Virus record (IMG/VR): IMGVR_UViG_3300009136_000002
Location: 11,156 to 75,155 of that record
DNA: 64,000 nucleotides
Reading direction: 5' to 3' (one strand)
DNA from: a virus
Below, piece by piece: positions 8,182 through 37,038 of this stretch. Position 1 is the first letter of the stretch; the number at the start of each line of letters is the position of its first letter. The notes beneath the pieces are model-generated. The model was not told where the DNA came from, ran no database searches, and saw only the letters and a program-made list of their open reading frames with translations. The position numbers and the translations under genes were made by a program.

Positions 8182-8189
8182 GCAGGGGT

Positions 8190-8219: not shown

Positions 8220-8231
8220 CGATAAAATGAC

Positions 8232-8798: not shown

Positions 8799-8810
8799 AG
8801 AGGCCCACCG

Positions 8811-20035: not shown

Positions 20036-20290
20036 ATGGTACAGGATGCCGAAAGCCTCACGCTTGGTGACAGGCTTGCTCGAATCCGCAAGATCGTTGA
20101 GGCTATGCCTGACGGAGATCAGGACAAGGCCGATCTGATCCTGATCTTCGATGAGTATGAAAAAGCCGTTGAATCCAGGCATCAGCTCCAGGGTGCTTTG
20201 AGTGCTGCAAAATGGGCTCTGGAGGTAGCCCTGGAGAAAATATCTAAGCAAAAACAAGCACTAGACGTACTTTCAATAGGCAAAGACTAG
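20036..20290 (+). CDS. Hypothetical coiled-coil protein
   Basis: 84 aa, helical. Confidence 0.6.
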   Translation: MVQDAESLTLGDRLARIRKIVEAMPDGDQDKADLILIFDEYEKAVESRHQLQGALSAAKWALEVALEKISKQKQALDVLSIGKD

Positions 20291-20319
20291 GCCGCTTTCG
20301 ACGAGCGGCCTTTTCTTTT
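20289..20319 (+). terminator. Intrinsic terminator
   Basis: AGGCCGCT/AGCGGCCT stem followed by TTTCTTTT. Confidence 0.7.
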
Positions 20320-20335: not shown

Positions 20336-20857
20336 GTGACAACAGCACTATACCGAATATCGTCCGGCGAGGTCGTCAAGATCAGCTTATCAGATCAGAT
20401 GTGGGATGATCGAGCCCCTGCTTTTTGGGGAGTTCTGACAACCGCAGCTTATCCCGATGGCACTCAGGTTCGGCACATTGATCGTGAGTTGCGGGAGTTG
20501 GGCTTTGCTAAATTCGCCGATGTAGGCGGCAATATCGTCCGTAACGCCGTTCAAGGCGAAATTGATACCTACGCTCCCGCCCAGGAAGATGATGAGAACC
20601 AGCAGGACGCTCTAGGCGCTGGCGGGCTATTCCTGGTTCATCCACGAAACAGAAAGCTAATGACCGCCTTTGCCGACATTATCAAGGATGAAATGAATAT
20701 CCTGCGTGGTTGGCTCACTCAATTCAAAGCAGATGTGGCTGCAGCAAATAATCTCTCTGATCTCAAAAGCAGCGTTGCAGCACAGCCGGATCTTCCTGAT
20801 CGTACCCTGGCCCAACTGAAAACAGCAATTACAGCTCGAATAGACAAGGACGACTAA
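20336..20857 (+). CDS. Hypothetical protein, first of the operon with the giant Ser-rich gene
   Basis: 173 aa, GTG start after AGGGGG, TAATG coupling to the next gene. Confidence 0.75.
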   Translation: MTTALYRISSGEVVKISLSDQMWDDRAPAFWGVLTTAAYPDGTQVRHIDRELRELGFAKFADVGGNIVRNAVQGEIDTYAPAQEDDENQQDALGAGGLFLVHPRNRKLMTAFADIIKDEMNILRGWLTQFKADVAAANNLSDLKSSVAAQPDLPDRTLAQLKTAITARIDKDD

Positions 20858-21312
20858 TGGGCGTAACTAACCCGAATTACCCGACGATGGAGATCGCCCT
20901 GGCGATGGTTAATGCGCCGGATAACGCCGATGGCACAGAGCGCATGAAAAAAGGCGATATTATTGCCATTCGCAAACCAGCAGATTTCATAGGATCGCAA
21001 GAAGGCAAAATCTTTCTCTGGCTACATATTGATGGGCCAGAAGAAAATGAATTTGCTGCCTTTGCTCAACAGGTCTTTGAACCTACTGATCCTGAAACTG
21101 GCGAAAGATTCGACAAGCGAAGATACGAAGTTCCCCTCGGACGCTTACAGGTTCTATATCCCGCGTTTAATCAATCAAGAGCAACAGATCCAAATGATTT
21201 TTATCAACCATTCTTGCTCATTGACAGCGAAGATTTTGAAATTGTTGCTGCAGATCCACCATACGCAGTTAGCGGCCTAGTCTTTGATAAGGCCATAGGA
21301 GATTATCTCTAA
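20857..21312 (+). CDS. Hypothetical protein coupled to the giant Ser-rich gene
   Basis: 151 aa, TAATG overlaps at both ends. Confidence 0.75.
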   Translation: MGVTNPNYPTMEIALAMVNAPDNADGTERMKKGDIIAIRKPADFIGSQEGKIFLWLHIDGPEENEFAAFAQQVFEPTDPETGERFDKRRYEVPLGRLQVLYPAFNQSRATDPNDFYQPFLLIDSEDFEIVAADPPYAVSGLVFDKAIGDYL

Positions 21313-24300
21313 TGGCTACCTCAAGACGAGCTGCCACAAATGAGAATATCAGTACCTACGATAGCGGGGGTGGACAGGACTACTCAGCCCTTGCTACCTG
21401 GGAAGCTGCAACTGATATTGATCTCGTTACCGCTACTCAGTCTGAGGTCTTAGAGTGCTACGCTGGCTCTCACGATGATGAAGTTGTCATTGATGGCGCG
21501 ACTACGAATACTTCGTATTTCAGGATAATCCGTCCGGCCTCTGGAGAGGGTCACGATGGCTACCCCCACCAGGACGGATCAGCCGCTTATTTTGTCACTA
21601 CAACAAGCAACATAGATATGTTCTCTGTGGTTGAGGCTAACTGCCAACTTCAAGACTTGATAATGAGCCTCGATCAAGATGGTGGTAGTGCCTATTGCGC
21701 TGCCCTAGTAGGTAACAATCAGTATTTAATCGGCTGTCTAGCCATCAATCCGGTCAACATTGGCGGTGATTCTAAGGGTTTTAGAGAGAATGGCGGCAGC
21801 GGCGATACGATGTATTACATCAACAGTATCGCCATAGGCTGTGACGATGCTGCCTTTCAGTTCGATGCAGGAACAAGCTACGTCTATAACTGCCATGCCA
21901 TTGATTCAGGTGAAGGATTCAATGAGAGTGGCGGTACGGTAATCTGTAAAAACTGCCTGGGTAATGGCACTACCGGATCGCAGGACTTTGATGGCTCTTA
22001 TGATGCTGCGAGTGAATATAACTCATCAGGCGATGGCTCGGCCCCAGGTACAAACAGCCGGATCAATCAAACCTTTGCTTTCTCCGATGCTGGCAATGAT
22101 GATTTCCGGTTAGGCTACACCGATGGTGGCGCTAGGAATTTTGGTACTGATCTGAGCGCAGATGGCAATTTCGCTTTCGACGATGATATTGCTGATGGCG
22201 TTATGGGCGCGGGCAAAGCAGGAATAACACGCCCACAAGAATCAGTATGGGATATAGGCTTTCACGAGCGCACGGAAAGCTCTTCCAGCTCAAGTTCTTC
22301 ATCCTGCTCTAGTAGTTTTTCATCCAGTTCCTTCTCATCTTGCTCATCCAGTTTTTCTAGCTCAAGCTCATGCTCCTCGTCGTCCTTTTCTTCGTCCTCT
22401 TCCAGTTTCTCATCGTCCTGCAGTAGTTCATCGAGCAGTTTTTCATCTTCATCTAGCTGTTCTAGTTCGTCTTTTTCGAGTTCGAGTTCGAGTTCGTCAA
22501 GCAGCTTTTCCTCTAGTTCAAGTTCCTGTTCTAGCTCGTTTTCTTCAAGCTCTTCCTGTTCATCAAGCAGCTTTTCGTCCTCTTGTTCGTCGAGTTCTTC
22601 ATTTTCTAGCTCATCCTCTTCTTCACCTTCATGCGTTCCACCGGATTGGCGCTGGGTTGATGGTTCTCAGCTAATTGTCGGCACGATAAATACTGGCGTT
22701 TTCTGTGATACCCATGCCTGTGATCTTACTGAGTATGTAATCAATGAGCTTTCAGGTGTGGGTATTCCAGCTTTCGATCAAAGATTCACCTTTGAAAATG
22801 TACCAAAATCAACCCTTGATGTATCCATAACTGGCTACTACAGCGGCAATCCCGCTCATATCGTCAAAATAGCGATCTTTAATTACCAAACGCTCTTGTG
22901 GGATGATATGACAGGCGCAGCCCAGGACTTTCCATCACAGGCTACGCCTTCTAACTATGTATTTCCGCTCACAGGCGCGGGAACACCGTCTGATTATGTG
23001 AGTGTTGGCAATCAGCTATCAATTAAGATCGACCATCGCTCTAACGGATCAGCCGGACACACATTCCACATGGATTGTGTGCATCTGACCGATACCAGCT
23101 CTTCTAGCTCAAGTTCGTCAAGCTGCTCATCTTCCTTCTCCAGCTCATCGAGTTCATTTAGCTCTTCTTGCTCGTCAAGTTGCAGTTCGTCATTTTCATC
23201 TTCGTCAAGCTGCTCGTCCTCTTGTTCTTCAAGTTTTTCAAGTTCTAGCAGCTCTTTTTCATCGTCCTGTTCGTCGTCGAGTTTTAGCAGCTCATCGAGC
23301 TGCAGTAGCTCGTTTTCGTCCTCGTCGTCGAGCTGCAGTAGCTCATCTTTTTCGAGTTCATCATGCTCAAGCAGCTTTTCCAGTTCGAGTTCGTGCAGCT
23401 CGTCATTTTCGTCGTCCTCGTCCTCATCCTTCTCCAGCAGTTCGAGCTGTTCTTCGAGTTTTTCTTCTTCTAGCTCATGCTCGTCGAGCTTTTCATCAAG
23501 CTCATCATGCTCGTCGTCGAGCTTTTCATCTAGTTGTTCGTCCTGTTCTTCGAGCTTTTCATCATGCTCTAGCTCTTCTTCATCTTCATTAGAATGTGGA
23601 CAATGGATTGCTTACTTTGACGATTCAAGGTGGAACCCTGGGGGCATTGTTGCCCCACCATTTGCCTGTACCTGGGATTCAGTAAATTGGGAATGGGATT
23701 CTGATCTATATAGCTCACAGCAATGGGCCTATTTAGAAACACAAGGCGCATGGCGGAGTGGATACAGGCCAAGCAAGTTTCGGATTACATTCACAGGCGG
23801 CTCTCCACTATATGCCTGTAATCTGAAAGATACTGCCGGAAATGTCATTGGCGGTACGAATTTCCCGACCAATTATTTCTCCGGTCAAGTTGAAGCAATT
23901 ACTTTTTCGACATTCGATCTTAGATTTTTGGAATTACAGCATAACGGCACAACTCAATTCCAAGTTACAAATATCGAATTCTTTACGGTATGTTCCTCTT
24001 CTAGCTCTTCGTCGAGTTCATTTAGCTCTTGTTCTTCATCATTTAGCTCTTCAAGTTCGAGTTTTTCATCATCGTCGTCTTGTTCATCGAGCTTTTCAAG
24101 TAGTAGCAGCTCATTTTCATCGAGTTCATCATGCTCATCGAGCTTTTCGAGTTCATCATCTTCGTTTTCGTCCTCGTCCTCTTCATTCTCATCGTCGAGT
24201 TCCAGCTACTCAAGTTCCTCATCCTCTTCTTTATCGTCCTCCTCTTCCTCTTCGTTTTCGAGCAGTTGCTCTTCATCCTGTTCGAGTTTTTCGAGTTCTA

Positions 24301-27300
24301 GCTTTTCATCATCGTCGTCCAGCTCCTCTTTTAGCTCAAGTAGCTCTTTTTCCAGTAGTTCTTCATCATCCAGCTCTTGTTCTTCCTCAAGCTCTTCTTT
24401 TAGCTCTTCTTGCTCAAGTAGCTCTTTTTCTTCATCTTCTAGCTCATCGAGCTTTAGTAGCTCGTCGTCCTGTTCGTCGTCGTCCTTTTCGAGTTCAAGC
24501 TCTTCGAGTTTTTCGTCAAGCAGTAGCTCACGGAGTTCGTCATGCTCATCGAGCTGTTCAAGCTCTTTTTCATCGTCCTCGTTCTCGTCCTCGTCCTCGT
24601 GTTCATCAAGCAGCCCATCATCCAGCTCTTCCTCCTTCTCGTCGTCTTGCTCATCGTCCTCTTTCTCTTCGAGTAGCTTCTCGTCGTCCTCTTCGAGCTT
24701 TTCTTCTTCTTCCTGTAGCTCCTCGTTCTCATCGAGTTCGTCATGCAGCTCAAGCTCATTTTCTTCTTCTTCGAGCTGTAGTTCGTCGTCTTTTAGCTCG
24801 TCAAGTTCGGTTTCATCTAGCTCGTCATTTTCTTCTTCATCTTCTTGCTCCAGTAGCTCATTTTCGTCGTCAAGTTCATCATTTAGCTCGTCGAGTTCCT
24901 TTTCATCTTCCTGTTCATCTTCGTCGTCATTTTCCAGCTCAAGCTCTTCGAGTTTCAGCTCTTCGAGTTCGAGCTTTAGCTCTTCAAGCTCAAGTTTTTC
25001 AAGCTCTTGCTCCTCAAGCTCCTTCTCGTCCAGTAGTAGCTGTTCTTCGTCGTTTTCATCCAGTTCTAGCTGTTCTTCGTCATTCTCGTCCAGTTGTAGC
25101 TCTTCGTTCTCTTTTTCAAGCTCCTCTTCGAGTAGTTCGTTTTCAAGCTCTTCATCCTGCTCAAGCTCCTCGTTTTCGAGTTCTAGCTCCTGCAGTAGCT
25201 CCTCTTTCTCGTCGTCCAGCTCATCCTTTTCAAGCTCTTCATCAGAGAGCCTATCGTCGTCCTGCTCGTCCAGTAGCTCTCTCTCTGGCTCGGTTTCATC
25301 TTCGTGTTCGTCCTCTTCGTCCAGCCAATCTAGCTCAAGCTCAGTTTCATCTTCCTCTTCATGCTGTAGCTCCGTATCCTCTTCAAGCTCCTCTTTCTCG
25401 TCCTCATCCAGCTCCTTCTCGTCCTCAAGCTCGGTAAGTTCTTCGAGTTCGTGTGACTCGGCCTTCTCGTCCAGCTCATGCTCATCTAGCTGCAGTAGCT
25501 CATCGGAAAGCAGCTCTTGTCTGTCGTCCTCTTGCTCGTCGTCCTCTAGTTGCAGCTCTTCCTCATCGGCTGACTGTGACTCTATACCTGTCTATGGGAA
25601 CAATGTCTTAGCTGTGTATCCTGATTGGATTTGGTACGACTTTGGTAGGGTAAAGGTCAATGAGGACAGCATTGAGCAAGTACACACGGATGCTAGAAGG
25701 TATGCTGGATTTGAATCACGCAAATTCGTTGCTGAATTCAGGGCTGGGGATCAAGATCCGCAAGGCATCGAACAGCGATTTCCGATAGGGAATCCGGCCT
25801 CTCTAGGCGTAACGAGAGTCTATCAACTCTCATTTTGGATCTATCCAGTTGATCGGACTAAGATCAGAGTAACCATCAAGCATGATGATGGGACTTTGAA
25901 TGTTCATAACTATCCTGGTCTTACTCCGAATACCTGGAATCTGGTAAGCGATCTGGTCAACATTCAGAATAACACCAATACCGTGATCGCGTGGCACTCC
26001 GGCGCTACGGAATCCGGTACTTGGTATCTCGATGAGTTGGCATTGCGCTGGCTGGTCTGCCCTGGATCTTCATCGTCCTCGGAATCATCCTGTTCGAGTT
26101 CGTCTTGCTCCTCTTCCAGCGAATCCTCATCCTCACTCAGCTCCTCATCCTCTTGTAGTAGCTGTAGCTCGTGTGATTCGCTCTTCTCGTCCTCTAGCTC
26201 ATCGTCGTCGTTCTCCAGCTCATCGTCGTCCTGTAGCTCTTCAAGTACCTGTTCCTCTTCATCTTTCTCCAGTTGCAGCTCCTCTTTCTCGTCCTGCAGC
26301 TCTTCGTTCTCTTCGTCGTCGTCGTCATTTAGCTCATCTTCGAGCTGCAGCTCTAGCTGTTCGTCCAGTTTCTCATCTTCGAGTTCATCTTTTAGCTCTA
26401 GCTCTTCATCTTTCAGTAGTTCTTGCTCCTCAAGCTCATCCAGTTTGAGCTTTAGCTCAAGTTGCTCGTCCTGTGATTCTGGCTTTTCTTCAAGCTCTTC
26501 TAGCTCTTCATTCTCAAGCTCGTCGAGCTGTTCATCGTCTTTTAGCAGTTGCTCCTCTTCCTACTCGTTCTCCAGTTCGAGTTCTTCATCCTGTGATTCA
26601 GCTTTCTCTTCCAGCTCTTCGTGTAGTAGCTCATCTTCATCGTCCAGCGAGAGTTTCCAGGTCTTACAGGGACAATACTTCTATCCTCAGAGCGATGAGG
26701 GTGGATATACGGTTACTCCTGTGGGATCTGGCTCTAGCATCGCAGATCGAGTGAATAATGGCATCTTCGGGCCTGGATTCTCACCTGGGCCGGATGATAC
26801 TAACGGATTCCAGGGCAGTAACGGTGCTTACGTTAGACTTAGACTTTCAAATCCAGTTTTCCAGGGAGAAGCGATAGAAGTTAGATGTACTGTAAGGGCG
26901 TTTACTTTCTTTGCTCCACCTGGACGAGTTGATGTAAGATTCGAGTCTAGCTTTGGTGTGTCACATGGCACACGCACAATATACACGATTACTACAGGTG
27001 TTCCGGCTGATTACACGGTAAGCTGGAGTCTTAATAAGACAGCCGCAGAGCTTACAGATGCACGGTTGAGGGTTGAGTGCCAAGATCCAAGCTGGAATGA
27101 TCGAGTTACTGAGCTTGAATTACAGGTCATTATTGAAGGCTCATCTTCCAGTTCATGCTCTTCGAGTTCATCTTGTGATTCGGCATTCTCATCCTCCAGC
27201 TCTTCATCTTCGCTGAGTTCGGTGTCGGTAAGCAGTTGCTCATCTTCCTGTGATTCAGCTTTCTCATCGTCAAGCTCGTCGTCCTCACAAAGCTCTGTAT

Positions 27301-30300
27301 CTATCTCATCTTCTTCATCCAGTTACTCTAGCTCTTGCAGTTCCTCTAGCTCTTGCGATTCGGCATTCTCATCTTCATCTAGCAGCTCATCGTTCTCCAG
27401 CTCTTCATCCTCGTTCTCAAGCTCGTCGTCCTGTAGCTCGTCGTCGAGCTGCAGTTCTTGTGATTCAGCCTTCTCCTCTAGTTGCTCGTCGTCGTCATTC
27501 AGCTCGTCGAGTTCCAGCTCCTCTAGCTGTTCATCGAGCTTTAGCTCTTGCTCTTCATCGTCCTGCAGTAGCTCGTTCTCTTCATCTTCGTGTTCGAGCT
27601 GTGATTCAGCCTTCTCAAGCTCATGTTCGAGTTCAAGCTCCTCGTTCTCATCGAGCTGTTCATCGAGCTTTAGCAGTTCTAGCCCATCATTATCGTTCTC
27701 ATCCTGTAGCTCTTGCAGCTCATGTGATTCGGCTTTCTCATCGTCCAGCTCGTCGAGCTTTTCATCTTCGTCCAGCTCCTTCTCCTCCTCGTGTTCTAGC
27801 TCTTTTAGCTCAAGCTCATCTTCAAGCTGTTCATCGTCAAGTTTTTCATCGAGTTCTTGTAGCTCGTCATTTTCGTCAAGCTCAAGCTGCTCATCGTCAA
27901 GCAGCTCTTTTTCCTCGTCGAGTTCGTCTTTCTCAAGCTCGTCGTCGAGCTTTAGTTCAAGCTGTAGCAGCTCTTTCAGCTCTTCGAGTTCTTCATTCTC
28001 GTCGAGTTCAAGCTCTTTCAGCTCAAGCTGTAGCAGTAGCTCTTTCTCATCGTCGTCGTCCTTCTCAAGCAGCTCATCGTCGTTCTCGTCGAGTTCGAGT
28101 TCGTCGAGCTTTAGCTCCAGTAGCAGTTTCTCATCGTCCAGCTCTTCGTTCTCGTCAAGCTCCTCGTGTTCAAGCTCTTCGTTCTCAAGTAGCTGTTCCT
28201 CTTCAAGCTCGTCCTTCTCGTCGTCGAGTAGCTGTTCGAGTTCCTTCTCGTCGTCCTCAAGCTCTTTCTCAAGCTCAAGCTCAAATTGCTCATCTTCGAG
28301 CTGTTCATCTTCATTCAGCTCGTCGTCTTTCAGCTCGTCGTCATCGCGCTCTTCCAGCTCAAGCTCATTCTCTTCGAGTTCTTCCTCTTTCAGTAGCTCG
28401 TCAAGCTGTTCGAGTTCTTTCAGCTCTTGCAGCTCCTCGTTCTCTTCGAGTTCTGAGAGTTTTAGCAGCTCTTCTTCCTCGCAGAGTTCAAGCTCATCTT
28501 GCTCTGCCGGACAATGGATCTCCCAATTCGGTGCGCCATCTACCTTTGGCTGTGGTTTAGGTTTTGGTACAACCAAATGGTCAACAACTGGCGGCAATAC
28601 TAGGCACGTTAATAGTTCACCTGATTACTTCGATGCTTGTGGCCCTGGCGGTTTTGGGCTGGCTGCTACTGGCGCATGGAAAACTGGCTACAGACCAACA
28701 AAAATCAGGGTCACGATTACAGGTGGTACTCTCTCTTGGACGCTATCAGACGGTAGTGGAGTGATTGCCTCTGCCAGTAATCAGATAGGTTCGCCAGCGG
28801 CAGAAGTTAATATCGGCGGTCAAGTTAGCGATATTGTTAGTTTCGGGCCAGCCGATGAGTTTACTGGATGGCACATAGAGGATATTGAATTCTTCGTCTG
28901 CTCAAGCTCAAGCAGCTCTTTCTCATCCTGTTCCTCTAGCGAATCGTCGAGTTCAAGCTCTTCATCCTTCTCTTCAAGCTCTAGCTCATTTTCGTCCAGT
29001 TCGAGTTCTTTCAGCAGCTCATCCTCATGCTCATCTTCCAGCGAATCATCTTCATCGTCGCCAGTTCCGTTCTTTACAGGCATAAATCCAGACGAAGATG
29101 TTGATATTACTGGCTGGACGCTTTCAGGTCAGGCTACAGCTTGGGAATGTACGGAGGATTTTAGTGCTGGAGATCCGGCGAGGAATGATGATTATGTCTA
29201 TGCTTTAGCAGCCAATACCATAAAGCTCGGTTTTGAGAATCCTTCGTATGCTGGCAATTCCTATTATGTGAGAGTGAAATTTAGTGCGGCCTCCGGCGGG
29301 TCACAGGGTAGCCTGGGAATGTCGCTCTATGACGGTGCTAGTCAAATAGGCAGCGAACAGATATTTGCTCCGCAGTTGCTACCTGGGACTTGGAGTGAAT
29401 TTGAATACAGTTTCGCAACGACTAAGACCGCTGCAGAGCTGAGTGATATGCGAGTATGGTTCCGGTGGATTAGTGGACTCTCGATCCTTGTCAGCTCGGT
29501 ACAGATAGACATTTCCCTGGCATCTTCTTCTTCGTCCTCATTGTCGGAAAGCTCAAGCTCAGAGTCGGTAAGCTCATGCTCAAGTTCACACTCATTAAGC
29601 TCCAGTTCGTCGTGTGAATCTGGAGCATGGGTAGATGTTTTCACTCCTGAGTGGGTTTGCTCCGCTAACTGCTCATATAATGCTACCTTGGATCAGTTTG
29701 AGGAAGCTGGCCCTGGTATGAGCATACGGGAAAGCGGTACTTGGAATGTGGGTTATCGCCCGATTAAAATCAGGGCTTACGGTCATACTCCTGGCGGTTG
29801 GGGCGAGTTGAATCTGAGAGATAATGTTGGCGGTGGAAACGTCATTGCGAATGATGATGGCGGTGGTAGTGGCTATGTCGCTGGTACTCCGGTTGATATT
29901 GATTGGTCATACGGCATTGATATGGCTAGGATTGATTCACCGTGGGATACCCTAACCAATGTCCAATTCTTCATTTGTGGTTCGAGTTCAAGTAGCTCAT
30001 TCTCATCCTGTAGCTCTAGCTTTAGCAGTTCCAGCTCTTCGTTCTCCAGTTCCAGCTCTAGCTCTTCATTCTCATCTTCCAGCTCTTCGTTCTCAAGCTC
30101 ATCTTCCTTCTCGTCTAGCTCATCTTTCTCATCAAGCAGCTCTTCATTCAGTTCCTCTTCGAGTGAAAGTCAGATTTTACAAAGCCAATTCATCCGGCCT
30201 GATGAAGATGTGAGTGCCAGCAACATTACTTTTGGCTCCGGTAGTTCTAGGTGGGATCGACTGAATGATGGAATTATTACCGGAACGCCTGACGACACAA

Positions 30301-31826
30301 ATGGCGTTGGGGGTATGTTCTCCGATGATTTTCAGCGGAGCGGATTTACGAATCCTTCTTTCCAGGGAACAAGCCTAGAGATTAAAGTTCATGTTCGCTG
30401 TAAAAACGCCGACAATGAACAGTTCGATATAAAATTGTACTCAGATGGAAGCAGCCTTGATGGATCTAGCGGCCTAATTGCTGCAACGACGAGCTATGCC
30501 AATTACAGCCATAGTTTTTCAGTTCAAAAAACAGCGGCACAGCTCACGAATTTGGAAGTAAGATTTAGTAGTTTCGCCAGCGTAGAGAGCCATGAATTAT
30601 CAGAAATGGAAGTTGAAATTGTTAAGCCTTCATCTTCCAGTTCTTCTTCCTGTTCCAGTAGCTTTTCTTCATGCTCAAGCTCATTCTCAAGCTCTTCATC
30701 CTGCTTTTCTAGCAGCTCCTTTAGCTCAAGCTCATCATCTTTCAGTTCAAGCTCATCCAGTTCAAGCTCATCGCAAAGTTTCTCGACGTTTCAGACGCGA
30801 ATATGGATGTATCCATCAATACCGGATGATTTAGTTGATGGATTTACTTTCGGTGCTGGTAGTAACCCTGGCAACATCAATAACGGTATCTTTGGCCCTG
30901 GAGCATCACCGGATGATACGGCGGGAATAGGCAGCTCGTCGGACGGTTACTACGAAGCGGATCTATGGCCTAATGTCTTTTACTCAGGCCAAACAATAAA
31001 TATCAAATCCCATTGGCGACTAAAAAATGATGGCCCTGGTACTGGCGATGTGAACGTGCAACTGCGTGACGGTGGTTCACCATACACTAATACAAATATC
31101 AATCCGACTACGAGTTGGGTGACTTACACCGTAGATCACAACCTACAGTTGAATTGGATGGAAATTCAAAATATGCTCATGTGGATTGGCTTTGATGATA
31201 CGGTCAACGCTGATCGACTTTCTGAGGTGGAAGTTGAGCTTATTTTTGGTAGTTCTTCAAGCTCCAGTTCATCCTCAGAATCTTGTAGCTCATCTTCATT
31301 CTCATCGTCCTCAAGCTCATCTTCATCAGCAGCTCCATTAACGATATTGAATCCTAATGGTGACTTCGATCATACATGGAGTGGTGCTACCGGATGGGAT
31401 CAAATAAATGATTGGGATGATGGAGATCCAGCAAGGCAAAGCAGTACGATTTTTGCCAGTACAGGCGTGACTGAAAAGACAGATTTTGAGAATCCTTCAT
31501 TTTCTGGAAATTGCGAATCCATAGACGTAAAAATTGATGCCAGATGGACTAATGGGCCAACATCGGTAGGAATCTCTCTGTACGATGGTGCAAGCATCAT
31601 TGGTAGCGAACAAGTACAAGCTCTAACTCCAGCTTGGGCCGAATACTCATGGAAATTTACAACTTCCAAAACGATGGAAGAGCTTAGTGATCTGAGAGTT
31701 TGGTTCCGATTCGCTCTTGGTGGACTCAATTTTGCTTTTATAGCTGCTTGTCAGGTGGAGATACATTTGCCAACTTCAAGCTCAAGCTCAAGCTGTAGTT
31801 CATCTTCCAGTTCAACATCGACTTAG
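21312..31826 (+). CDS. Giant serine-rich multidomain protein (3504 aa), probable virion surface glycoprotein
   Basis: 10.5-kb uninterrupted ORF. N-terminal beta-helix-like domain ending WDIGFHE, then ten further globular domains, with 11 poly-Ser tracts punctuated by F and C. No signal peptide. Confidence 0.85.
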   Translation: MATSRRAATNENISTYDSGGGQDYSALATWEAATDIDLVTATQSEVLECYAGSHDDEVVIDGATTNTSYFRIIRPASGEGHDGYPHQDGSAAYFVTTTSNIDMFSVVEANCQLQDLIMSLDQDGGSAYCAALVGNNQYLIGCLAINPVNIGGDSKGFRENGGSGDTMYYINSIAIGCDDAAFQFDAGTSYVYNCHAIDSGEGFNESGGTVICKNCLGNGTTGSQDFDGSYDAASEYNSSGDGSAPGTNSRINQTFAFSDAGNDDFRLGYTDGGARNFGTDLSADGNFAFDDDIADGVMGAGKAGITRPQESVWDIGFHERTESSSSSSSSSCSSSFSSSSFSSCSSSFSSSSSCSSSSFSSSSSSFSSSCSSSSSSFSSSSSCSSSSFSSSSSSSSSSFSSSSSSCSSSFSSSSSCSSSSFSSSCSSSSSFSSSSSSSPSCVPPDWRWVDGSQLIVGTINTGVFCDTHACDLTEYVINELSGVGIPAFDQRFTFENVPKSTLDVSITGYYSGNPAHIVKIAIFNYQTLLWDDMTGAAQDFPSQATPSNYVFPLTGAGTPSDYVSVGNQLSIKIDHRSNGSAGHTFHMDCVHLTDTSSSSSSSSSCSSSFSSSSSSFSSSCSSSCSSSFSSSSSCSSSCSSSFSSSSSSFSSSCSSSSFSSSSSCSSSFSSSSSSCSSSSFSSSSCSSSFSSSSSCSSSFSSSSSSSFSSSSSCSSSFSSSSSCSSSFSSSSSCSSSSFSSSCSSCSSSFSSCSSSSSSSLECGQWIAYFDDSRWNPGGIVAPPFACTWDSVNWEWDSDLYSSQQWAYLETQGAWRSGYRPSKFRITFTGGSPLYACNLKDTAGNVIGGTNFPTNYFSGQVEAITFSTFDLRFLELQHNGTTQFQVTNIEFFTVCSSSSSSSSSFSSCSSSFSSSSSSFSSSSSCSSSFSSSSSSFSSSSSCSSSFSSSSSSFSSSSSSFSSSSSSYSSSSSSSLSSSSSSSFSSSCSSSCSSFSSSSFSSSSSSSSFSSSSSFSSSSSSSSSCSSSSSSFSSSCSSSSFSSSSSSSSFSSSSSCSSSSFSSSSSSSFSSSSSSRSSSCSSSCSSSFSSSSFSSSSSCSSSSPSSSSSSFSSSCSSSSFSSSSFSSSSSSFSSSSCSSSFSSSSSCSSSSFSSSSSCSSSSFSSSSSVSSSSSFSSSSSCSSSSFSSSSSSFSSSSSFSSSCSSSSSFSSSSSSSFSSSSSSFSSSSSSFSSSCSSSSFSSSSSCSSSFSSSSSCSSSFSSSCSSSFSFSSSSSSSSFSSSSSCSSSSFSSSSSCSSSSFSSSSSSFSSSSSESLSSSCSSSSSLSGSVSSSCSSSSSSQSSSSSVSSSSSCCSSVSSSSSSFSSSSSSFSSSSSVSSSSSCDSAFSSSSCSSSCSSSSESSSCLSSSCSSSSSCSSSSSADCDSIPVYGNNVLAVYPDWIWYDFGRVKVNEDSIEQVHTDARRYAGFESRKFVAEFRAGDQDPQGIEQRFPIGNPASLGVTRVYQLSFWIYPVDRTKIRVTIKHDDGTLNVHNYPGLTPNTWNLVSDLVNIQNNTNTVIAWHSGATESGTWYLDELALRWLVCPGSSSSSESSCSSSSCSSSSESSSSLSSSSSCSSCSSCDSLFSSSSSSSSFSSSSSSCSSSSTCSSSSFSSCSSSFSSCSSSFSSSSSSFSSSSSCSSSCSSSFSSSSSSFSSSSSSFSSSCSSSSSSLSFSSSCSSCDSGFSSSSSSSSFSSSSSCSSSFSSCSSSYSFSSSSSSSCDSAFSSSSSCSSSSSSSSESFQVLQGQYFYPQSDEGGYTVTPVGSGSSIADRVNNGIFGPGFSPGPDDTNGFQGSNGAYVRLRLSNPVFQGEAIEVRCTVRAFTFFAPPGRVDVRFESSFGVSHGTRTIYTITTGVPADYTVSWSLNKTAAELTDARLRVECQDPSWNDRVTELELQVIIEGSSSSSCSSSSSCDSAFSSSSSSSSLSSVSVSSCSSSCDSAFSSSSSSSSQSSVSISSSSSSYSSSCSSSSSCDSAFSSSSSSSSFSSSSSSFSSSSSCSSSSSCSSCDSAFSSSCSSSSFSSSSSSSSSCSSSFSSCSSSSCSSSFSSSSCSSCDSAFSSSCSSSSSSFSSSCSSSFSSSSPSLSFSSCSSCSSCDSAFSSSSSSSFSSSSSSFSSSCSSSFSSSSSSSCSSSSFSSSSCSSSFSSSSSCSSSSSSFSSSSSSFSSSSSSFSSSCSSSFSSSSSSFSSSSSSFSSSCSSSSFSSSSSFSSSSSSFSSSSSSSSFSSSSSFSSSSSSFSSSSSCSSSSFSSSCSSSSSSFSSSSSCSSSFSSSSSSFSSSSSNCSSSSCSSSFSSSSFSSSSSRSSSSSSFSSSSSSFSSSSSCSSSFSSCSSSFSSSSESFSSSSSSQSSSSSCSAGQWISQFGAPSTFGCGLGFGTTKWSTTGGNTRHVNSSPDYFDACGPGGFGLAATGAWKTGYRPTKIRVTITGGTLSWTLSDGSGVIASASNQIGSPAAEVNIGGQVSDIVSFGPADEFTGWHIEDIEFFVCSSSSSSFSSCSSSESSSSSSSSFSSSSSSFSSSSSSFSSSSSCSSSSESSSSSPVPFFTGINPDEDVDITGWTLSGQATAWECTEDFSAGDPARNDDYVYALAANTIKLGFENPSYAGNSYYVRVKFSAASGGSQGSLGMSLYDGASQIGSEQIFAPQLLPGTWSEFEYSFATTKTAAELSDMRVWFRWISGLSILVSSVQIDISLASSSSSSLSESSSSESVSSCSSSHSLSSSSSCESGAWVDVFTPEWVCSANCSYNATLDQFEEAGPGMSIRESGTWNVGYRPIKIRAYGHTPGGWGELNLRDNVGGGNVIANDDGGGSGYVAGTPVDIDWSYGIDMARIDSPWDTLTNVQFFICGSSSSSSFSSCSSSFSSSSSSFSSSSSSSSFSSSSSSFSSSSSFSSSSSFSSSSSSFSSSSSESQILQSQFIRPDEDVSASNITFGSGSSRWDRLNDGIITGTPDDTNGVGGMFSDDFQRSGFTNPSFQGTSLEIKVHVRCKNADNEQFDIKLYSDGSSLDGSSGLIAATTSYANYSHSFSVQKTAAQLTNLEVRFSSFASVESHELSEMEVEIVKPSSSSSSSCSSSFSSCSSSFSSSSSCFSSSSFSSSSSSFSSSSSSSSSSQSFSTFQTRIWMYPSIPDDLVDGFTFGAGSNPGNINNGIFGPGASPDDTAGIGSSSDGYYEADLWPNVFYSGQTINIKSHWRLKNDGPGTGDVNVQLRDGGSPYTNTNINPTTSWVTYTVDHNLQLNWMEIQNMLMWIGFDDTVNADRLSEVEVELIFGSSSSSSSSSESCSSSSFSSSSSSSSSAAPLTILNPNGDFDHTWSGATGWDQINDWDDGDPARQSSTIFASTGVTEKTDFENPSFSGNCESIDVKIDARWTNGPTSVGISLYDGASIIGSEQVQALTPAWAEYSWKFTTSKTMEELSDLRVWFRFALGGLNFAFIAACQVEIHLPTSSSSSSCSSSSSSTST

Positions 31827-31863
31827 GGCTTGCATTAGAATTTGGGCTGGTTAAAATCGGGCT

Positions 31864-32409
31864 ATGTACGATCTCAACTACTACGAAAATTTACTGAGGA
31901 TTCACAGCGCCACGGCAGAGCGGATCAGCGACATTCGCTGGCATTTTATAGAGCAAGGTGTTTACTTGCCAGCCGGACGAGGATGGCGCTCAAAGTTGAA
32001 GGTGCTGGACTATGGTTCCGGTGTCGGCTGGTTTCGAGCATGGCGACCCCCCTGGGCTGACGTATGGAGCTATGATTTGGGCCTGTATCCACAAACAGGC
32101 ATCGACATGGTTCCCTATGACGTAACGTGCTTTTGGGACGTTCTGGAGCATATTAGGGACTTTCAGGACATAGAGCCGATCCTGATGCTCTCCAAGAAAG
32201 TTGCTTGCACGGTTCCGATCATACCGGAGGAAGGCCTGAGTGAATGGAAGCATTTTAAACCAGGGGAACATTTACATTATTTCACTAAGGACTCCCTGAT
32301 CGCGCTCTTTGATAAGTTTGGATTCAGCCCTATGGTTGAAAATGATTGTGAATGTCCTCCACGCAAAGATGTAACAACCTTTTTGTTTGCTAATCGCTGG
32401 AGGCCATAA
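31864..32409 (+). CDS. Class I SAM-dependent methyltransferase
   Basis: VLDYGSGVG, YDVTCFWDVLEH, EHLHYFT. Confidence 0.9.
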   Translation: MYDLNYYENLLRIHSATAERISDIRWHFIEQGVYLPAGRGWRSKLKVLDYGSGVGWFRAWRPPWADVWSYDLGLYPQTGIDMVPYDVTCFWDVLEHIRDFQDIEPILMLSKKVACTVPIIPEEGLSEWKHFKPGEHLHYFTKDSLIALFDKFGFSPMVENDCECPPRKDVTTFLFANRWRP

Positions 32410-32636
32410 TGCTAGATTTTATCGAAATGAGGAAACAGCTCCAAAAAGCCCTGGCAAGCGGTAAATTGTTTGTGAGGATCAGCTACATGGACGAAGAGGA
32501 AACGATCCAGCATTACTACTTAACTCACAACTTTCCCAGGGAAGATATAATGCTCAGTATCGAGCATATCGCTAAAGAAATTCTTCCCGAATCCCTAGAA
32601 ACAGAAACCGAAACAGATGAGGAAGATAATCCTTAG
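32409..32636 (+). CDS. Hypothetical protein
   Basis: 75 aa, coupled to neighbours. Confidence 0.65.
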   Translation: MLDFIEMRKQLQKALASGKLFVRISYMDEEETIQHYYLTHNFPREDIMLSIEHIAKEILPESLETETETDEEDNP

Positions 32637-33543
32637 AAACGGACAGAGCCCTGGTGACGTATTGACCATGACTAGGGCTGTCGCCGACTTTGCTAACTCA
32701 TATCCTGATTTCCTGATCGACGTAAGAAGTCCCTGTGCCGAAATTTGGGAGAATAATCCCTGGCTGCATCCACTCGATGAAAACGACGAAGAGGTGGAAC
32801 AGTTCGACATCGGCTATGATGCCATTCACAACAGCGGCGTTACAGGGATACATTTCGCTGACGGATTCAGGCTGGATATTGAGAAGAAGCTCGATGTCAA
32901 GATCCTACCAACAGGGATCTTGCCGGAGCTTTGGGTTAGCGATGAAGAGAAAAGCTGGATAAATCAGGCTGAGGTTGAGTTCGGCTGGAAAGACAAATTC
33001 TGGCTCCTTAATGCCGGATCTAAGCCGGACAATGCACTCAAGCAATATCATCGCTGGCAAGAAGTTGTAGACATTCTCACACGGTTCTTTGACAACAGAA
33101 TAAAGATAGTCCAGATAGGCCATGAGGCCCATCATCATCCAGACCTTACGGGTGTCCTTTCCCTGGTAGGCAAGACGGATCTCCGGCAACTCATACGATT
33201 ATGCCATTGGTCTGAGGGAACAATAGGCCCGATCAGCTTTCAATTCGTCCTGGCCGCAGCCCTGCAGAAACCTTATGTGTGCGTGGCAGCGGGCAAAGAA
33301 GGTGTGCGCTGGCATCTATATCCTCATGGACGCTATCTTTACACAAATGGCTGTCTTGAATGCTGTGAATGGGATGGGTGCTGGCGCGGTGGGGGTCACA
33401 CTAAATGCCTGACGATGGAGAATGGATCTCCCAAATGTTTCACGATGATTAAGCCCTACATGATCGCAGATGCCGTGAAGATGTACTACGAAGGGGGCAA
33501 GCTAAACTTTGATTGGCGAGTACCACGAGAAGAAACTGGTTGA
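32617..33543 (+). CDS. GT9-like glycosyltransferase with C-terminal Cys cluster
   Basis: PGDVL, ENNP, IVQIG, LVGKTDLRQL, ISF...LAAALQKP; CCEWDGCW...C...CF.MI. Confidence 0.85.
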   Translation: MRKIILRNGQSPGDVLTMTRAVADFANSYPDFLIDVRSPCAEIWENNPWLHPLDENDEEVEQFDIGYDAIHNSGVTGIHFADGFRLDIEKKLDVKILPTGILPELWVSDEEKSWINQAEVEFGWKDKFWLLNAGSKPDNALKQYHRWQEVVDILTRFFDNRIKIVQIGHEAHHHPDLTGVLSLVGKTDLRQLIRLCHWSEGTIGPISFQFVLAAALQKPYVCVAAGKEGVRWHLYPHGRYLYTNGCLECCEWDGCWRGGGHTKCLTMENGSPKCFTMIKPYMIADAVKMYYEGGKLNFDWRVPREETG

Positions 33544-34273
33544 GTACCTTGAGCCAGGGCAGCGTGTCCTGATTCGATTCGGTCATGGCTGGGGCGATAC
33601 CCTGATGTTCATGCCGATCTTCGAGCGGCTGCAGGATCTCTACGCTGATGTGCATTTCGATCTGTATCTCGAATGTGGTCAGGAATGTATTTTCGAGTCA
33701 TTTCCGGATAAAGAGGGGCCGGATCACGATTACGTTTTCCACCTTGATTTTCCTATGTCGGAGGGATCTGGACTCACTAAAGCGCAGAAATGCTGCGTGG
33801 ATGAGCTTGGAATTGATCCTTTATCTGAAATTGCGGCTTTGCCGAAGAAACCATCGCCGATTGTTTCAGTCCATTTTCAAGGTACGGCCTTACCGAATTC
33901 GGTCAACTGTCCAGAGGAGGTAGCGCGAAAAGTATGGCAGGAGGTTTTGGATGCTGGAAAAATTCCCGTTGAAGCCCATTTTAGGCATTTGTTTCACAAT
34001 CCTGCTAATACTCGCTATGGGTTTATTGATCGTCATGTACGGTATTGTAATGCTAATTTGTCTAATCTCATCGGTCTTATACAAGTATCTTTCGCCTTTG
34101 TCGGAATTGCTTCTGGCCCTCTTGTTACTGCTCTATCAGTCATGCCGACAAGGACGTTTTACCTGGAGAGGAATCACAAGATTACGGATTATGTAAAGCA
34201 CCTGGACGTTAAGGCAGTTCATGTAGATCACTACGAGGATGGGATGGTGAGTGAATGGCTGACTACGCTATGA
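33509..34273 (+). CDS. Second GT9-like glycosyltransferase
   Basis: HGWGDTLMF.P, VSVHFQG, FVGIASGPL..A. Confidence 0.75.
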   Translation: MIGEYHEKKLVEYLEPGQRVLIRFGHGWGDTLMFMPIFERLQDLYADVHFDLYLECGQECIFESFPDKEGPDHDYVFHLDFPMSEGSGLTKAQKCCVDELGIDPLSEIAALPKKPSPIVSVHFQGTALPNSVNCPEEVARKVWQEVLDAGKIPVEAHFRHLFHNPANTRYGFIDRHVRYCNANLSNLIGLIQVSFAFVGIASGPLVTALSVMPTRTFYLERNHKITDYVKHLDVKAVHVDHYEDGMVSEWLTTL

Positions 34274-35145
34274 TTTTCAGTACCACTAGAGGCTATATGC
34301 CAGGAACGAATGGCATTTTAAATGCAATGGAATACTACGGCATGACTCACATTGATGTCTATGTGATCCAGGTAAATTTCGAGCTAGATCAGGAATACAA
34401 AGATCAATGGCCTAATGTGAATTTCGAGGTCATTGACCCTACCATGTGGCACGAGCCAAAGAATGCCGGATGGTATTGCCGATTCGCACCACCCTGGAGA
34501 GCCATTCAGCTACTCGATCAGTACAAGGTCGTCAACATTCACGGAGCCGATGTCTGCCCGCTTAAAGATGTCACCATGTACTACGACTTGTCGGCAAAGA
34601 CAGGCCAGATCATTGTCGGCACAAATGAGCAAGGCTGCGCTGATTATTCACGAATGACTGAGAAGGGGAAACACCCTTACGTCCATACCTGGATGATCCC
34701 TTACGCTGATATACCGTGCTTTGTTACTCGACATCAAAAGGCGGTTTTGGAGCTGGTTCTTGATCTTCACCGGAGGCCTGATTGCACCTTGAGTTGGATG
34801 GATGCACTCAACTATGCCTTGCGGGATCTCGAACAAGAGCCCATTGCGCTCCCTGGCAACCTGTGGGTTTTCAATCTTAGCTCCCAGGGCAAGGTGAGGA
34901 GAGAGGGAGACAAGATTTTCTATCTCGACCAGCAAATGAACCAGTTTCACAGGAAATACTGGATTGCTAACTTTTGCAGAAAGTACCTGGCTCCGAATAG
35001 TCCTAACTGCGGCCACAACCACCTGATCTTTAATCAGATGTGGAATTTTTTCAATAGAGAATGTCGAGTACAATGGCTAGAGGGCTTGGAAGTATGGGAC
35101 GGAGTACATCAGTCACAATCATTGGAACACGGCCCCAATTCATAA
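34255..35145 (+). CDS. GT-A (GT8-like) glycosyltransferase
   Basis: Y..G...ILNA, YCRF, HGAD (DxD variant), MDALNY, LPG..W, FH.KYW; paralogous to 36124-37038. Confidence 0.7.
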   Translation: MADYAMIFSTTRGYMPGTNGILNAMEYYGMTHIDVYVIQVNFELDQEYKDQWPNVNFEVIDPTMWHEPKNAGWYCRFAPPWRAIQLLDQYKVVNIHGADVCPLKDVTMYYDLSAKTGQIIVGTNEQGCADYSRMTEKGKHPYVHTWMIPYADIPCFVTRHQKAVLELVLDLHRRPDCTLSWMDALNYALRDLEQEPIALPGNLWVFNLSSQGKVRREGDKIFYLDQQMNQFHRKYWIANFCRKYLAPNSPNCGHNHLIFNQMWNFFNRECRVQWLEGLEVWDGVHQSQSLEHGPNS

Positions 35146-36134
35146 AAGCAGCCTCAATCAACTTCGATGAAGATAAGGTCGATAACTTCCTGGTTCACAC
35201 AGGCCAGCATTACGATTATGGTCTGTCCAGGCAGTTTTGGAAACTGAGAAAGAAAGAGCCGGATCAGGTACTCAACTGTGCCAGCCATGATCCGACGATC
35301 CAGATGAAGTTGATGCTGGATCAAATCGCGCCGATCCTGATCCATAGGAAACCCGACTATGTGATCGTGGTCGGCGATTGTAATTCTACCCTGGGTGGTG
35401 CTTTAACTGCGGAGCTACTGAAAATTCCGGTCATTCACATAGAGGCTGGATTAAGGTCGTTCGATTGGACTATGCCGGAGGAAAGAAACCGTTACCTGAC
35501 GGATCACCTAGCCCAGGTGAATTTCTGTGTGACAGCCGAAAACAAGAGGCAGATCGAGAGGGAAACACATTTCCCCAGGCCCATGATGCAGCAATGGTAT
35601 GGCTCACCGCCGAATCATAACTATGTGGTCGGTGACACGCTTTATGATTCGATGATGTCCTTCATAGATGAAACCGTACCGATGCTGGGTGACTATTTCC
35701 TGGCAACAGTACACAGGGAAGCGAACGCAAATGAGCATATTGAGGAAATTCTGGATGCCCTGAATTCACTCGAACAGAGGGTCATTTTCCCCAAGCATCC
35801 ACGCATTAAGCTGGAGAAAGAATATAAGAATATCGAAGTATTGAAACCAGTTGATTATGTCACGATGTTAAGCCTACAGCTTGGCGCTGATATGATCTTT
35901 ACCGACTCCGGCGGTGTTGGCCGTGAAGCTGTGTGGCTCGGCAAGCGATGTGTGATGCTGAGGGGAAATACTGAATTCCCTGAATTTGTTCATTCAGGCC
36001 ATGTGGTACTGGCTGGTCACAGCAAGGAAGCTATAGTCGATGCTCAATTCGCGCATTGGCCCTCTGAGCCCTGCGATCACGGACAGGATGGCAACGCTGG
36101 AGCGAGGATAGCGGAGGTTATCTATGGGCTCTAA
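35094..36134 (+). CDS. wecB: UDP-N-acetylglucosamine 2-epimerase (non-hydrolysing)
   Basis: GTRPQFIK, HTGQHYD, VGD.NSTL, HIEAGLRSFD..MPEE.NR, TVHRE, HPR, TDSGG. Start at 35061 is also possible. Confidence 0.93.
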   Translation: MGRSTSVTIIGTRPQFIKAASINFDEDKVDNFLVHTGQHYDYGLSRQFWKLRKKEPDQVLNCASHDPTIQMKLMLDQIAPILIHRKPDYVIVVGDCNSTLGGALTAELLKIPVIHIEAGLRSFDWTMPEERNRYLTDHLAQVNFCVTAENKRQIERETHFPRPMMQQWYGSPPNHNYVVGDTLYDSMMSFIDETVPMLGDYFLATVHREANANEHIEEILDALNSLEQRVIFPKHPRIKLEKEYKNIEVLKPVDYVTMLSLQLGADMIFTDSGGVGREAVWLGKRCVMLRGNTEFPEFVHSGHVVLAGHSKEAIVDAQFAHWPSEPCDHGQDGNAGARIAEVIYGL

Positions 36135-37038
36135 CTACGCTTACATTGTAGCCGCCAGCGAGAATTACATTCCTGGCCTGATGGCAATGTTCAACAGCAT
36201 GGAGCGGATCGGCAGTACGCACGATGTCATTCTAATTTCGTTCCGATTGCCGGATTGGTTCTTTGAGGATCTGGAACAAAGAGCTTATCCATTTCACATA
36301 AAGCTGGTTGATTCTGAGGGTGAAAATCAGATCCATCAGACAGCCATTGAGCGTTTCCGCGTGGCCTGTGAGGTCGGCACTACCTATGATGCCATTTGCT
36401 TGCTGGACGCGGATATGTGGGTCGAGGCTAATGTAGATGTGTTCTTCCTGGCTGCGAGTAAGGGACTGATCGTTACTGGCAGTAACGGCATGATTATCAA
36501 CTTCAACAAAGCCTACCAGGAACAATACCAATGCTTTCTTGAGGCTGATGAGTGGCCGTATCCGCAGATCCATACGACTGTGCCGATCTTCATAGATACT
36601 CGCAACTTCGATTGGTTCGATGAGCTTTATAAGTCCAGGCGGGTAGATGCCTGGGATGATTTCCTGTACCTGAATCTCCTGGGGATCAAGCTCCGCAAGT
36701 ACGAGAAGATGATCTGTATGCCGCCATACGCCTTCACCGGAATTCATCATTGGCAGATGAAGCCGGAAACGGGAGTGATTGAGAAGGGTGATCTACTACT
36801 CTCCGGCACAGAAGAACAAGTCTACATGGTGCATGGTAAATGGTGGGATGAGGGCTGGCTGCAGGATCTCTTGCCAACAATGGCAGGATATTGGCTCGAT
36901 GAAGGGATTAGTGAAAGAGGACAAGGAAGAACACATAATGCAATTAACTCCCTACTAAACCGTTTTCGCAGCTTGGTACAAGAAGGAGATCAATCATGGC
37001 AAACATTATTACAAGAGGGGGCGCTTTTCTTACCCTAA
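36124..37038 (+). CDS. GT-A (GT8-like) glycosyltransferase
   Basis: ASENY.PG...MFNS, ERF, LLDADM (DxD), LN.L, VHGKWW. Confidence 0.75.
   Translation: MGSNYAYIVAASENYIPGLMAMFNSMERIGSTHDVILISFRLPDWFFEDLEQRAYPFHIKLVDSEGENQIHQTAIERFRVACEVGTTYDAICLLDADMWVEANVDVFFLAASKGLIVTGSNGMIINFNKAYQEQYQCFLEADEWPYPQIHTTVPIFIDTRNFDWFDELYKSRRVDAWDDFLYLNLLGIKLRKYEKMICMPPYAFTGIHHWQMKPETGVIEKGDLLLSGTEEQVYMVHGKWWDEGWLQDLLPTMAGYWLDEGISERGQGRTHNAINSLLNRFRSLVQEGDQSWQTLLQEGALFLP

Follow-up and report, generated by a model that had tools for sequence, protein, structure and literature searches.

We analysed a stretch of 64,000 nucleotides (the window), corresponding to bases 11156-75155 of the IMG/VR virus record IMGVR_UViG_3300009136_000002, a record of 75,155 bp that was rated complete by CheckV. 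The block of interest sits at the start of the plus-strand late genes and encodes a giant poly-serine (poly-Ser) protein followed by a cassette of predicted sugar-modifying enzymes (Table 1). Downstream (3') of the giant gene the order is methyltransferase, a gene of 75 amino acids (aa), g308, g254, g296, WecB and g304, followed by the terminase. TAATG overlaps join the two upstream genes u173 and u151 and the giant gene, and most of the later genes overlap too. An earlier interpretation made from the letters alone (the sequence-only reading) had described overlapping starts and stops, a location just upstream of terminase and a block filling about a quarter of the window, and these descriptions agreed with what was measured, the block being 16.7 kb or 26% of the window. 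The genes that it had named were likewise found; the conserved 75-aa gene had been missed.

Table 1. Features of the poly-Ser block and its borders, in window coordinates
Feature	Position	Strand	Basis or remark
Terminator-like hairpin	20289..20311	+	9-bp stem, 6 GC pairs, T-rich tail; consensus scan
u173, 173 aa	20336..20857	+	TAATG-coupled to u151
u151, 151 aa	20857..21312	+	TAATG-coupled to giant gene
Giant poly-Ser protein, 3,504 aa	21312..31826	+	D0 beta-helix, 10 small modules, 11 Ser/Phe/Cys tracts
D0, predicted right-handed beta-helix domain, aa 1-323	21312..22280	+	tailspike-like
Longest Ser tract, 523 aa, 81% Ser	23997..25565	+	residues 896-1418
Second-longest Ser tract, 450 aa, 78% Ser	27147..28496	+	residues 1946-2395
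Family-A module D5, representative of three paralogs of about 135 aa (D2, D5, D7)	28497..28910	+	paralogy
Family-B module D8, representative of five paralogs	30165..30635	+	predicted jelly roll (beta) of carbohydrate-binding-module type
Methyltransferase dependent on S-adenosylmethionine (SAM), 181 aa	31864..32409	+	Pfam Methyltransf_23 4.4e-10; PHROG methyltransferase
75-aa open reading frame, acidic C-terminus	32409..32636	+	TAATG-coupled to methyltransferase gene
g308, GT9-fold glycosyltransferase, 308 aa	32617..33543	+	conserved C-terminal Cys cluster
g254, divergent shorter GT9-like protein	33509..34273	+	without Cys cluster
g296, GT8-like GT-A paralog	34255..35145	+	GAD instead of DxD
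WecB-type non-hydrolysing UDP-N-acetylglucosamine 2-epimerase	35061..36134	+	Pfam Epimerase_2 9.2e-71
g304, GT8-like GT-A glycosyltransferase	36124..37038	+	DAD motif
Terminase large subunit (TerL)	37689..39329	+	PHROG 2, E 2.1e-45; tblastn vs phage records; start of head/tail module

Serine accounts for 1,522 residues (43%) of the giant protein. Sliding-window segmentation resolved 11 Ser tracts, the number given in the sequence-only reading, with a total of about 1,651 residues (its estimate was about 1,700) and with two longest members close to the lengths of roughly 525 and 455 aa that it had proposed; five tracts span 114-523 aa. The tracts contain 73-90% Ser (about 80%), about 9% Phe and about 7% Cys, and the Phe and Cys residues are spaced quasi-regularly, with C-S3-F occurring 37 times, F-S6-F 32 times and F-S5-C 30 times. 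Thr (1 residue), Pro (2) and Asn (1) are nearly absent from the tracts although a single base change in a Ser codon could equally give any of the three. Block starts within the tracts (22281-31811) repeatedly carry a CDSAF motif. In distant phages the tracts were composed of S+C, S+F or S+C/F/Y.

All six Ser codons are in use (TCA 272, TCG 264, AGC 248, TCT 232, TCC 168 and AGT 138), and Tandem Repeats Finder detected only short, low-copy arrays in the tract DNA. Given the near-even codon usage and the non-repetitive DNA, serine appears to be selected at the protein level and is not a product of replication slippage. A phage tRNA-Ser aiding translation of the tracts was considered and rejected, as the phage carries no tRNA-Ser.

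The giants of two relatives (L178:3250-14367 and L179:2366-13426) measure 3,687-3,706 codons from stop to stop. Compared with the giant studied here their module order is shuffled and the lengths of single tracts differ, and the total tract length is nearly constant in the three proteins (1,652 here, 1,597 in L178 and 1,580 in L179). The C-terminus of all three giants is formed by a short run of Ser and then TST.

Within the tracts there are further open frames, in other registers and on the opposite strand (e.g. 23842-25437 and 27323-28597), which could mean that the long open reading frame (ORF) is itself an artefact of low-complexity DNA, of an assembly error or of a slippage-prone repeat. 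These additional frames were rejected as alternative genes and are a by-product of the codons used, because TCN, AGY, TTY and TGY codons cannot give rise to a stop either in the +1 frame or in one of the antisense frames, so that extra open frames arise automatically. Moreover, a single frame is uninterrupted over 10.5 kb, across 11 globular segments that are not repetitive, these segments have paralogs and homologs and one of them gives a confident structural model, the tract DNA is not repetitive, and giants of similar size are present in three independent metagenomic relatives. We therefore give an artefactual origin next to no credence.

The globular segments, 128-323 aa in length, alternate with the tracts and were grouped by all-against-all comparison into the N-terminal D0, family A (D2, D5, D7), family B (D4, D6, D8, D9, D10) and the single segments D1 and D3. 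When the whole giant and each globular segment were searched against Pfam no match above threshold was obtained, the sub-threshold matches being CBM_4_9 (E = 0.072) and CARDB, and no CAZy catalytic domain was found in the giant with Pfam. Searches of D0 and family B against PDB with single-sequence and five-sequence profiles returned noise only. Structural modelling of family B with AlphaFold, using 21 paralogous and orthologous copies, gave a predicted local distance difference test score (pLDDT) of 91, and the model matched CBM6, CBM4 and CBM35 in Foldseek at E about 1e-4 and CBM32, CBM4 and CBM27 in VIA-align at Z 10-11. Judged from this model, the predicted fold of family B is a jelly roll of the carbohydrate-binding module (CBM) type. 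A stand-alone 187-aa family-B protein without a Ser tract (L105:840-1403) was found in a cassette-less phage with a terminase 45% identical to the one here, its gene lying at the equivalent place, just upstream of the terminase genes and after a fibre-like ORF.

At least 193 homologs on phage-sized contigs make up the family of the D0 segment; they are mostly stand-alone, and the majority have about 300-350 aa. The family profile matched the beta-helix of the Klebsiella phage K1 capsule lyase 7W1C (E = 8.1e-5), 2 of 28 family members matched a PHROG tail-fibre family, and a language-model search of the ESM Atlas with D0 pointed to the NosD and Beta_helix families. These tailspike and tail-fibre affinities favour attachment to the virion, and from its sequence the giant looks like a tailspike-type protein with an acquired C-terminal extension of 3,180 residues. 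The absence of a signal peptide and of an anchor, which the sequence-only reading had pointed out, was borne out: no signal peptide and no N-terminal hydrophobic segment were detected in the giant (maximum 19-residue hydropathy 1.44), and no LPXTG anchor at its C-terminus.

The giant, glycosylated or not, could instead act outside the virion, as a lysis-released or intracellular matrix, a decoy or a polysaccharide-binding adhesive that, for example, keeps progeny off debris or conditions biofilm. Its gene lies upstream of terminase and at a distance from the adaptor and tail genes (47-54 kb), no particle-binding extension or domain was recognisable at the N-terminus, and an unrolled length of hundreds of nanometres would be awkward on a particle, all of which would fit such a role. 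However, besides the tailspike-lyase and tail-fibre PHROG matches of the D0 family, other phages with the cassette have Ser tracts appended to recognisable tail proteins (in L018, as a C-terminal Ser tail on a PHROG minor tail protein), the giant gene is co-oriented and continuous with the late operon, and without a signal peptide export would need lysis. A function away from the particle is in our view quite improbable.

Two GT9-like glycosyltransferases had been proposed for the cassette, and the two candidates differed in how well they held up. No Pfam match was obtained with the g308 sequence itself, and as a single sequence against PDB it returned noise; 31 of 42 homologs (34-66% identity) matched Pfam Glyco_transf_9 (PF01075, best E = 1.7e-21), and the profile of the family, which has 1,482 representatives, matched the heptosyltransferase WaaF (1PSW) at E = 3.5e-6. 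The g308 model (pLDDT 94) retrieved GT9 structures in Foldseek at E = 7e-13, with Z scores of 24.1 to 3TOV, 21.5 to WaaF 1PSW, 20.8 to TibC and 19.5 to WaaC, and 12 for the next unrelated fold. This modelling, together with the family matches, firmly supports a GT9 fold for g308. The second candidate, g254, had no match in Pfam, PHROGs or NCBIfam; compared with the g308 family it gave an HHalign probability of 51% (E = 1.5e-4 over 178 columns), and BLASTP against g308 gave E = 0.005. These sequence comparisons weakly suggest that g254 is GT9-like; the gene is kept in distant cassettes. No heptose pathway gene was seen in the window, so that an ADP-heptose donor would have to be supplied by the host.

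TibC hyperglycosylates serines of an adhesin encoded by a neighbouring gene in the cytoplasm, for which it needs a four-Cys iron finger (PMC4358343), and it has an N-terminal beta-barrel (residues 1-97), assembles into a dodecameric ring and carries Cys339/342/358/370 (PMC4358343; PDB 4RAP, 4RB4). As in the bacterial autotransporter heptosyltransferases (BAHT; TibC/TibA, Aah/AIDA-I), g308 has a GT9-related catalytic domain of the GT-B type, superposing on TibC with a root-mean-square deviation of 2.8 over 259 aligned residues (model 1-297 vs TibC 96-391). It further resembles TibC in having its gene near that of a serine-rich, beta-helix-bearing putative substrate. A conserved Cys cluster in the equivalent C-terminal region, in which the family shows no variation at C255, C264 and C274 and hardly any at C249, may be a counterpart of the iron finger. 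Unlike TibC, g308 has no counterpart of residues 1-97, the Cys spacing is C-x5-C-x8-C-x9-C vs C-x2-C-x15-C-x11-C in TibC, and the putative substrate is disordered poly-Ser and not the beta-helix repeats of TibA.

Neither g296 nor g304 had a match in PHROGs or NCBIfam, and no match to Pfam PF01501 was found for either. The profile of the g304 family (at least 142 homologs, none assigned by Pfam) aligned glycogenin-1 across the DxD half with a weak E-value of 0.0066, and the nearest named language-model cluster in the ESM Atlas was GT8 (score 0.97). Of the two proposed GT8-like enzymes, g304 is moderately GT8-like; g296 is a clear paralog of it (HHalign E = 2e-40 against the g304 family) but has GAD in place of DxD. 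This GAD subtype is kept in L002, L005, L017 and the distant phages L021 and L022, other relatives having DAD or DSD, and g296 is probably a functional variant or a non-catalytic partner.

The methyltransferase and WecB assignments of the sequence-only reading were both upheld by Pfam. The methyltransferase is kept in distant cassettes. The 75-aa ORF is kept in close relatives, and a weak match to it immediately precedes the GT9 gene in L027, L039 and L075. In WecB the Epimerase_2 match covers profile positions 7-346 of 347, and the NCBIfam equivalog TIGR00236 scored 198 bits, under its cutoff of 210. WecB was found in close relatives only and a 197-aa ORF takes its place in L003, which marks it as accessory to the cassette. 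The suggestion that the glycans carry sugars derived from N-acetylmannosamine is accordingly not sustained as a property of the system. No membrane or hydrophobic segment and no signal peptide were found in the cassette enzymes, which, as with the giant, fits modification in the cytoplasm before assembly.

The sequence-only reading had proposed a survey of phage contigs for Ser-rich giants beside such transferases. For this survey an ORF was counted as a Ser-tract ORF if it had a window of at least 20 aa with at least 70% Ser, was the longest ORF at its place and had at least 60 non-tract residues, and it had to lie within 10 kb of the anchor gene. Relatives of the GT9 gene were found at 169 places in IMG/VR. 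Among 80 GT9-anchored IMG/VR loci (30-98% identity), 45 had a Ser-tract ORF, compared with 2 (one phage sampled twice) of 72 TerL-anchored control loci without the cassette (883 kb). This is an excess of about twenty-fold (56% vs 3%; Fisher p = 3e-14, not corrected for shared ancestry). After de-replication the proportions were 34/64 clusters at 90% identity, 25/48 at 70% and 8/13 at 50%. At many loci the Ser-tract gene is located directly upstream of the GT9 gene.

The association extended to assemblies of cellular genomes, where 21 of 46 loci had a Ser-tract ORF near the GT9 homolog; these loci came from Planctomycetota, Verrucomicrobiota, Acidobacteriota and a cultured Paraburkholderia phymatum strain. 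In the latter, EG181B (NZ_JBFRCH010000024.1, L186:6753-10948), a g308 homolog with 38% identity directly follows a 1,074-aa protein with Ser/Phe tracts, the C-terminal part of which is beta-helix-like. Contig WJMJ01000101.1 (L218:16927-20665, L207), part of a metagenome-assembled genome assigned to Promethearchaeota, has the GT9 homolog in two copies, and near them lie two Ser-tract ORFs, one of 477 aa with 182 residues in tracts and one of 763 aa with 448; the contig was placed in an Asgard archaeal bin and may be of viral origin or mis-binned.

In close relatives (TerL 82-95% identical) the gene order is giant, methyltransferase, the two GT9-type genes GT9a and GT9b, GT8-like, WecB or the 197-aa ORF, GT8-like and TerL. 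Methyltransferase, GT9a, GT9b and GT8-like genes are also retained as a core in distant relatives found through their GT8-like genes (44-61% identity), and each of eight distinct distant loci had at least one Ser-tract ORF within 10 kb, upstream or downstream. The terminases of these distant phages were undetectable as relatives or about 24% identical to the one here. A five-gene core has thus been kept beside Ser-tract proteins in phages with unrelated terminases, indicating, as the sequence-only reading had supposed, that tracts and transferases belong together.

The likeliest reading, which we hold with somewhat more confidence than doubt, is that the tracts are O-glycosylated in the cytoplasm to give a mucin-like appendage of the virion. 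The block would then be a phage protein O-glycosylation system together with its own substrate, a tail-appendage protein probably held on the particle by the D0 beta-helix, in which the remaining 3,180 residues would form a very long flexible tether carrying ten modules, at least five of them of the predicted CBM type. During late infection the first sugar would be attached to tract serines in the cytoplasm by g308, perhaps together with g254, in the manner of TibC; the GT8-like enzymes would lengthen the glycan, the methyltransferase would cap or decorate it, and WecB would provide an extra sugar in this sub-lineage only. The product that we infer is a stiffened, protease-resistant mucin-like bottle-brush with lectin-like modules far from the capsid, and it may serve to make the initial contact with polysaccharide surfaces, for example capsule, biofilm matrix or particles.

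A number of points weigh against cytoplasmic glycosylation of a virion appendage. The case for modification is one of guilt by association, and the loci share descent of the cassette, which makes the counts non-independent. TibC was not retrieved with the g308 family profile at E <= 1, and the fold search ranked it no higher than the lipopolysaccharide (LPS) heptosyltransferases. The GT9 link of g254 is marginal, the GT8 link of g304 is weak by sequence, and g296 lacks the first Asp of DxD. The site of the giant gene, away from the tail genes, and its N-terminus, in which no particle-binding extension was recognised, count here as well. GT9 enzymes classically act on LPS cores. Finally, 35 of the 80 IMG/VR cassette loci had no Ser tract within 10 kb; some of these are truncated and others may use different acceptors.

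The GT9 family's classical target and the loci without tracts also speak for the main rival explanation, namely that the tracts are unmodified flexible spacers and that the cassette acts on host LPS or capsule (for superinfection block or release) or on other virion proteins. This explanation has a precedent in the polyserine linkers of Cellvibrionaceae carbohydrate-active enzymes, which have 80-83% Ser and a mean length of 39-44 aa, and beside which PMC2699552 reports no transferases (Howard et al. 2004; PMC2699552); as there, tracts of about 80% Ser join CBM-type modules in the giant. Unlike these linkers, the tracts reach 523 aa, the two longest exceeding the linker mean more than ten times, contain Phe and Cys at regular intervals and are encoded in a phage late operon with an adjacent cassette, and unlike the secreted enzymes the giant has no signal peptide or CAZy catalytic domain. 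The roughly twenty-fold excess of Ser tracts across divergent phages and cellular genomes is not what passive spacers would lead one to expect, and the near-absence of Thr and Pro points to a specific constraint and not mere flexibility. In addition, the enzymes are soluble, their genes lie between that of a virion-type protein and that of terminase, and no gene for a flippase, a polymerase or a membrane transferase occurs in the vicinity. On balance we regard unmodified spacers as unlikely. Glycosylation of DNA is likewise unlikely, as no base-hypermodification enzyme was present among the early genes in a partial sampling (Ro60, RecT, YqaJ).

The serine-rich repeat protein (SRRP) adhesins (Fap1, GspB, PsrP) are characterised by a signal peptide, an LPXTG anchor, accessory Sec, the GtfA/GtfB pair (GT4) and S-X dipeptide repeats. 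The resemblance to these adhesins, which the sequence-only reading had drawn, stood as a functional one: a very long Ser-rich protein is encoded beside several glycosyltransferases, including GT8-type enzymes, and SRRPs are adhesin fibrils. None of the SRRP-defining features is present, as the system here has no signal peptide, LPXTG, accessory Sec, GtfA/GtfB pair or alternating S-X repeat; no match to SecA2/SecY2 or GT4 was found among the neighbours with Pfam or NCBIfam. The candidate initiating enzyme has a GT9 fold here and is a GT4 enzyme in SRRP systems. Read in this way, the system works like TibC/TibA and the SRRPs and is a member of neither family.

Other comparisons can be made with phages. 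Mycobacteriophages (Che8 and relatives; Freeman et al. 2023, Cell Host Microbe 31:1216, as cited in PMC11256854) encode glycosyltransferases that are believed to modify the phage's own structural proteins within the cytoplasm and so to give a glycan coat, the glycans being attached to the major capsid protein (PMC11256854). The system proposed here would carry this idea of virion glycosylation further. The transferases are phage-encoded in both cases, and the two differ in that the putative acceptor here is a dedicated 3,504-aa protein and the enzymes form a cassette of a GT9 enzyme with the Cys cluster (GT9-Cys), GT8-like enzymes and a methyltransferase. T4 Hoc and other immunoglobulin (Ig)-like capsid decorations, in the adherence-to-mucus model, are similarly accessory modules proposed to bind glycans and aid host encounter; they are small folded Ig-like capsid proteins, in contrast to the giant, and have no low-complexity tether or dedicated glycosylation genes. 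A literature search for polyserine or serine-rich phage proteins associated with transferases retrieved no published description.

Upstream of the block, the hairpin at 20289-20311 makes position 20336 a plausible start of the transcription unit. No match to u173 or u151 was found in Pfam, PHROG or NCBIfam. In two related phages u151 is 87-92% identical and lies directly upstream of the giant, and at the position of u173 the relatives L178 and L179 have an ORF of similar size, a possible counterpart judged by size and position. An adaptor role for both proteins may be suggested from the TAATG coupling and the position kept in close relatives, and u151 is a candidate chaperone or adaptor. An ORF pair at 18462-19432 (171 and 151 aa) was considered as a duplicate of u173/u151 and rejected, as no similarity was found.

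To the right of 37.2 kb lies the head and tail module with terminase large subunit, portal and major head protein. The plus-strand ORF 47332-48567 contains an SU10 adaptor domain (5.6e-08), from which the phage is probably short-tailed with a podovirus-type tail. A further giant ORF (54430-63834, plus strand, 3,134 aa) has ordinary composition and no Pfam match, and another of ordinary composition lies outside the window at genome bases 232-9429 (about 3,066 codons from stop to stop). If the genome is circularly permuted these two are adjacent, and the three giant genes then take up about 29 of 75 kb; as the phage is probably short-tailed, the two giants of ordinary composition may be virion proteins that are internal or ejected. 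The left arm is mostly on the minus strand and carries a RecT (8.3e-43) and YqaJ exonuclease (1.4e-28) recombination pair (window 5918-8181, minus strand) and a phage-encoded Ro60/TROVE protein (3811-5421, minus strand; Pfam vWA_Ro60 1.6e-67, TROVE 2.7e-41). Beside the Ro60 gene a 126-nt tRNA-like Rfam match (46.9 bits; 5719-5844, minus strand), which was not called as a tRNA by ARAGORN, is probably a YrlA-type Y RNA partner.

A broader proposal, which we advance tentatively and with rather more doubt than confidence, is that the GT9-Cys enzyme, the GT8-like enzymes and the methyltransferase form an undescribed and widespread O-glycosylation system for Ser/Phe/Cys tracts, serving mucin-like virion tentacles or coats in many uncultured phages and surface proteins in Planctomycetota, Verrucomicrobiota, Acidobacteriota and Paraburkholderia, with Phe and Cys acting as a recognition or cross-linking code.

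Glycosylation of the tracts, if real, would mean that phages produce genuine mucin-like glycoproteins with lengths of hundreds of nanometres, far exceeding the glycans attached to mycobacteriophage capsids. Models of the phage surface would then change with respect to adsorption range, stickiness towards biofilm and particles, and resistance to proteases and antibodies. A family of soluble, serine-directed glycosyltransferases that act in the cytoplasm on an unusually simple acceptor would also be added to those known, and could be of use in glyco-engineering. No homolog of g308 or g304 was found in 50,697 GenBank phage records, yet relatives of the GT9 gene are present at 169 places in IMG/VR and at 46 cellular loci, and this indicates a sizeable blind spot of culture-based phage biology. 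The cultured Paraburkholderia phymatum strain, with its homolog beside a Ser-tract protein, is a possible laboratory model.

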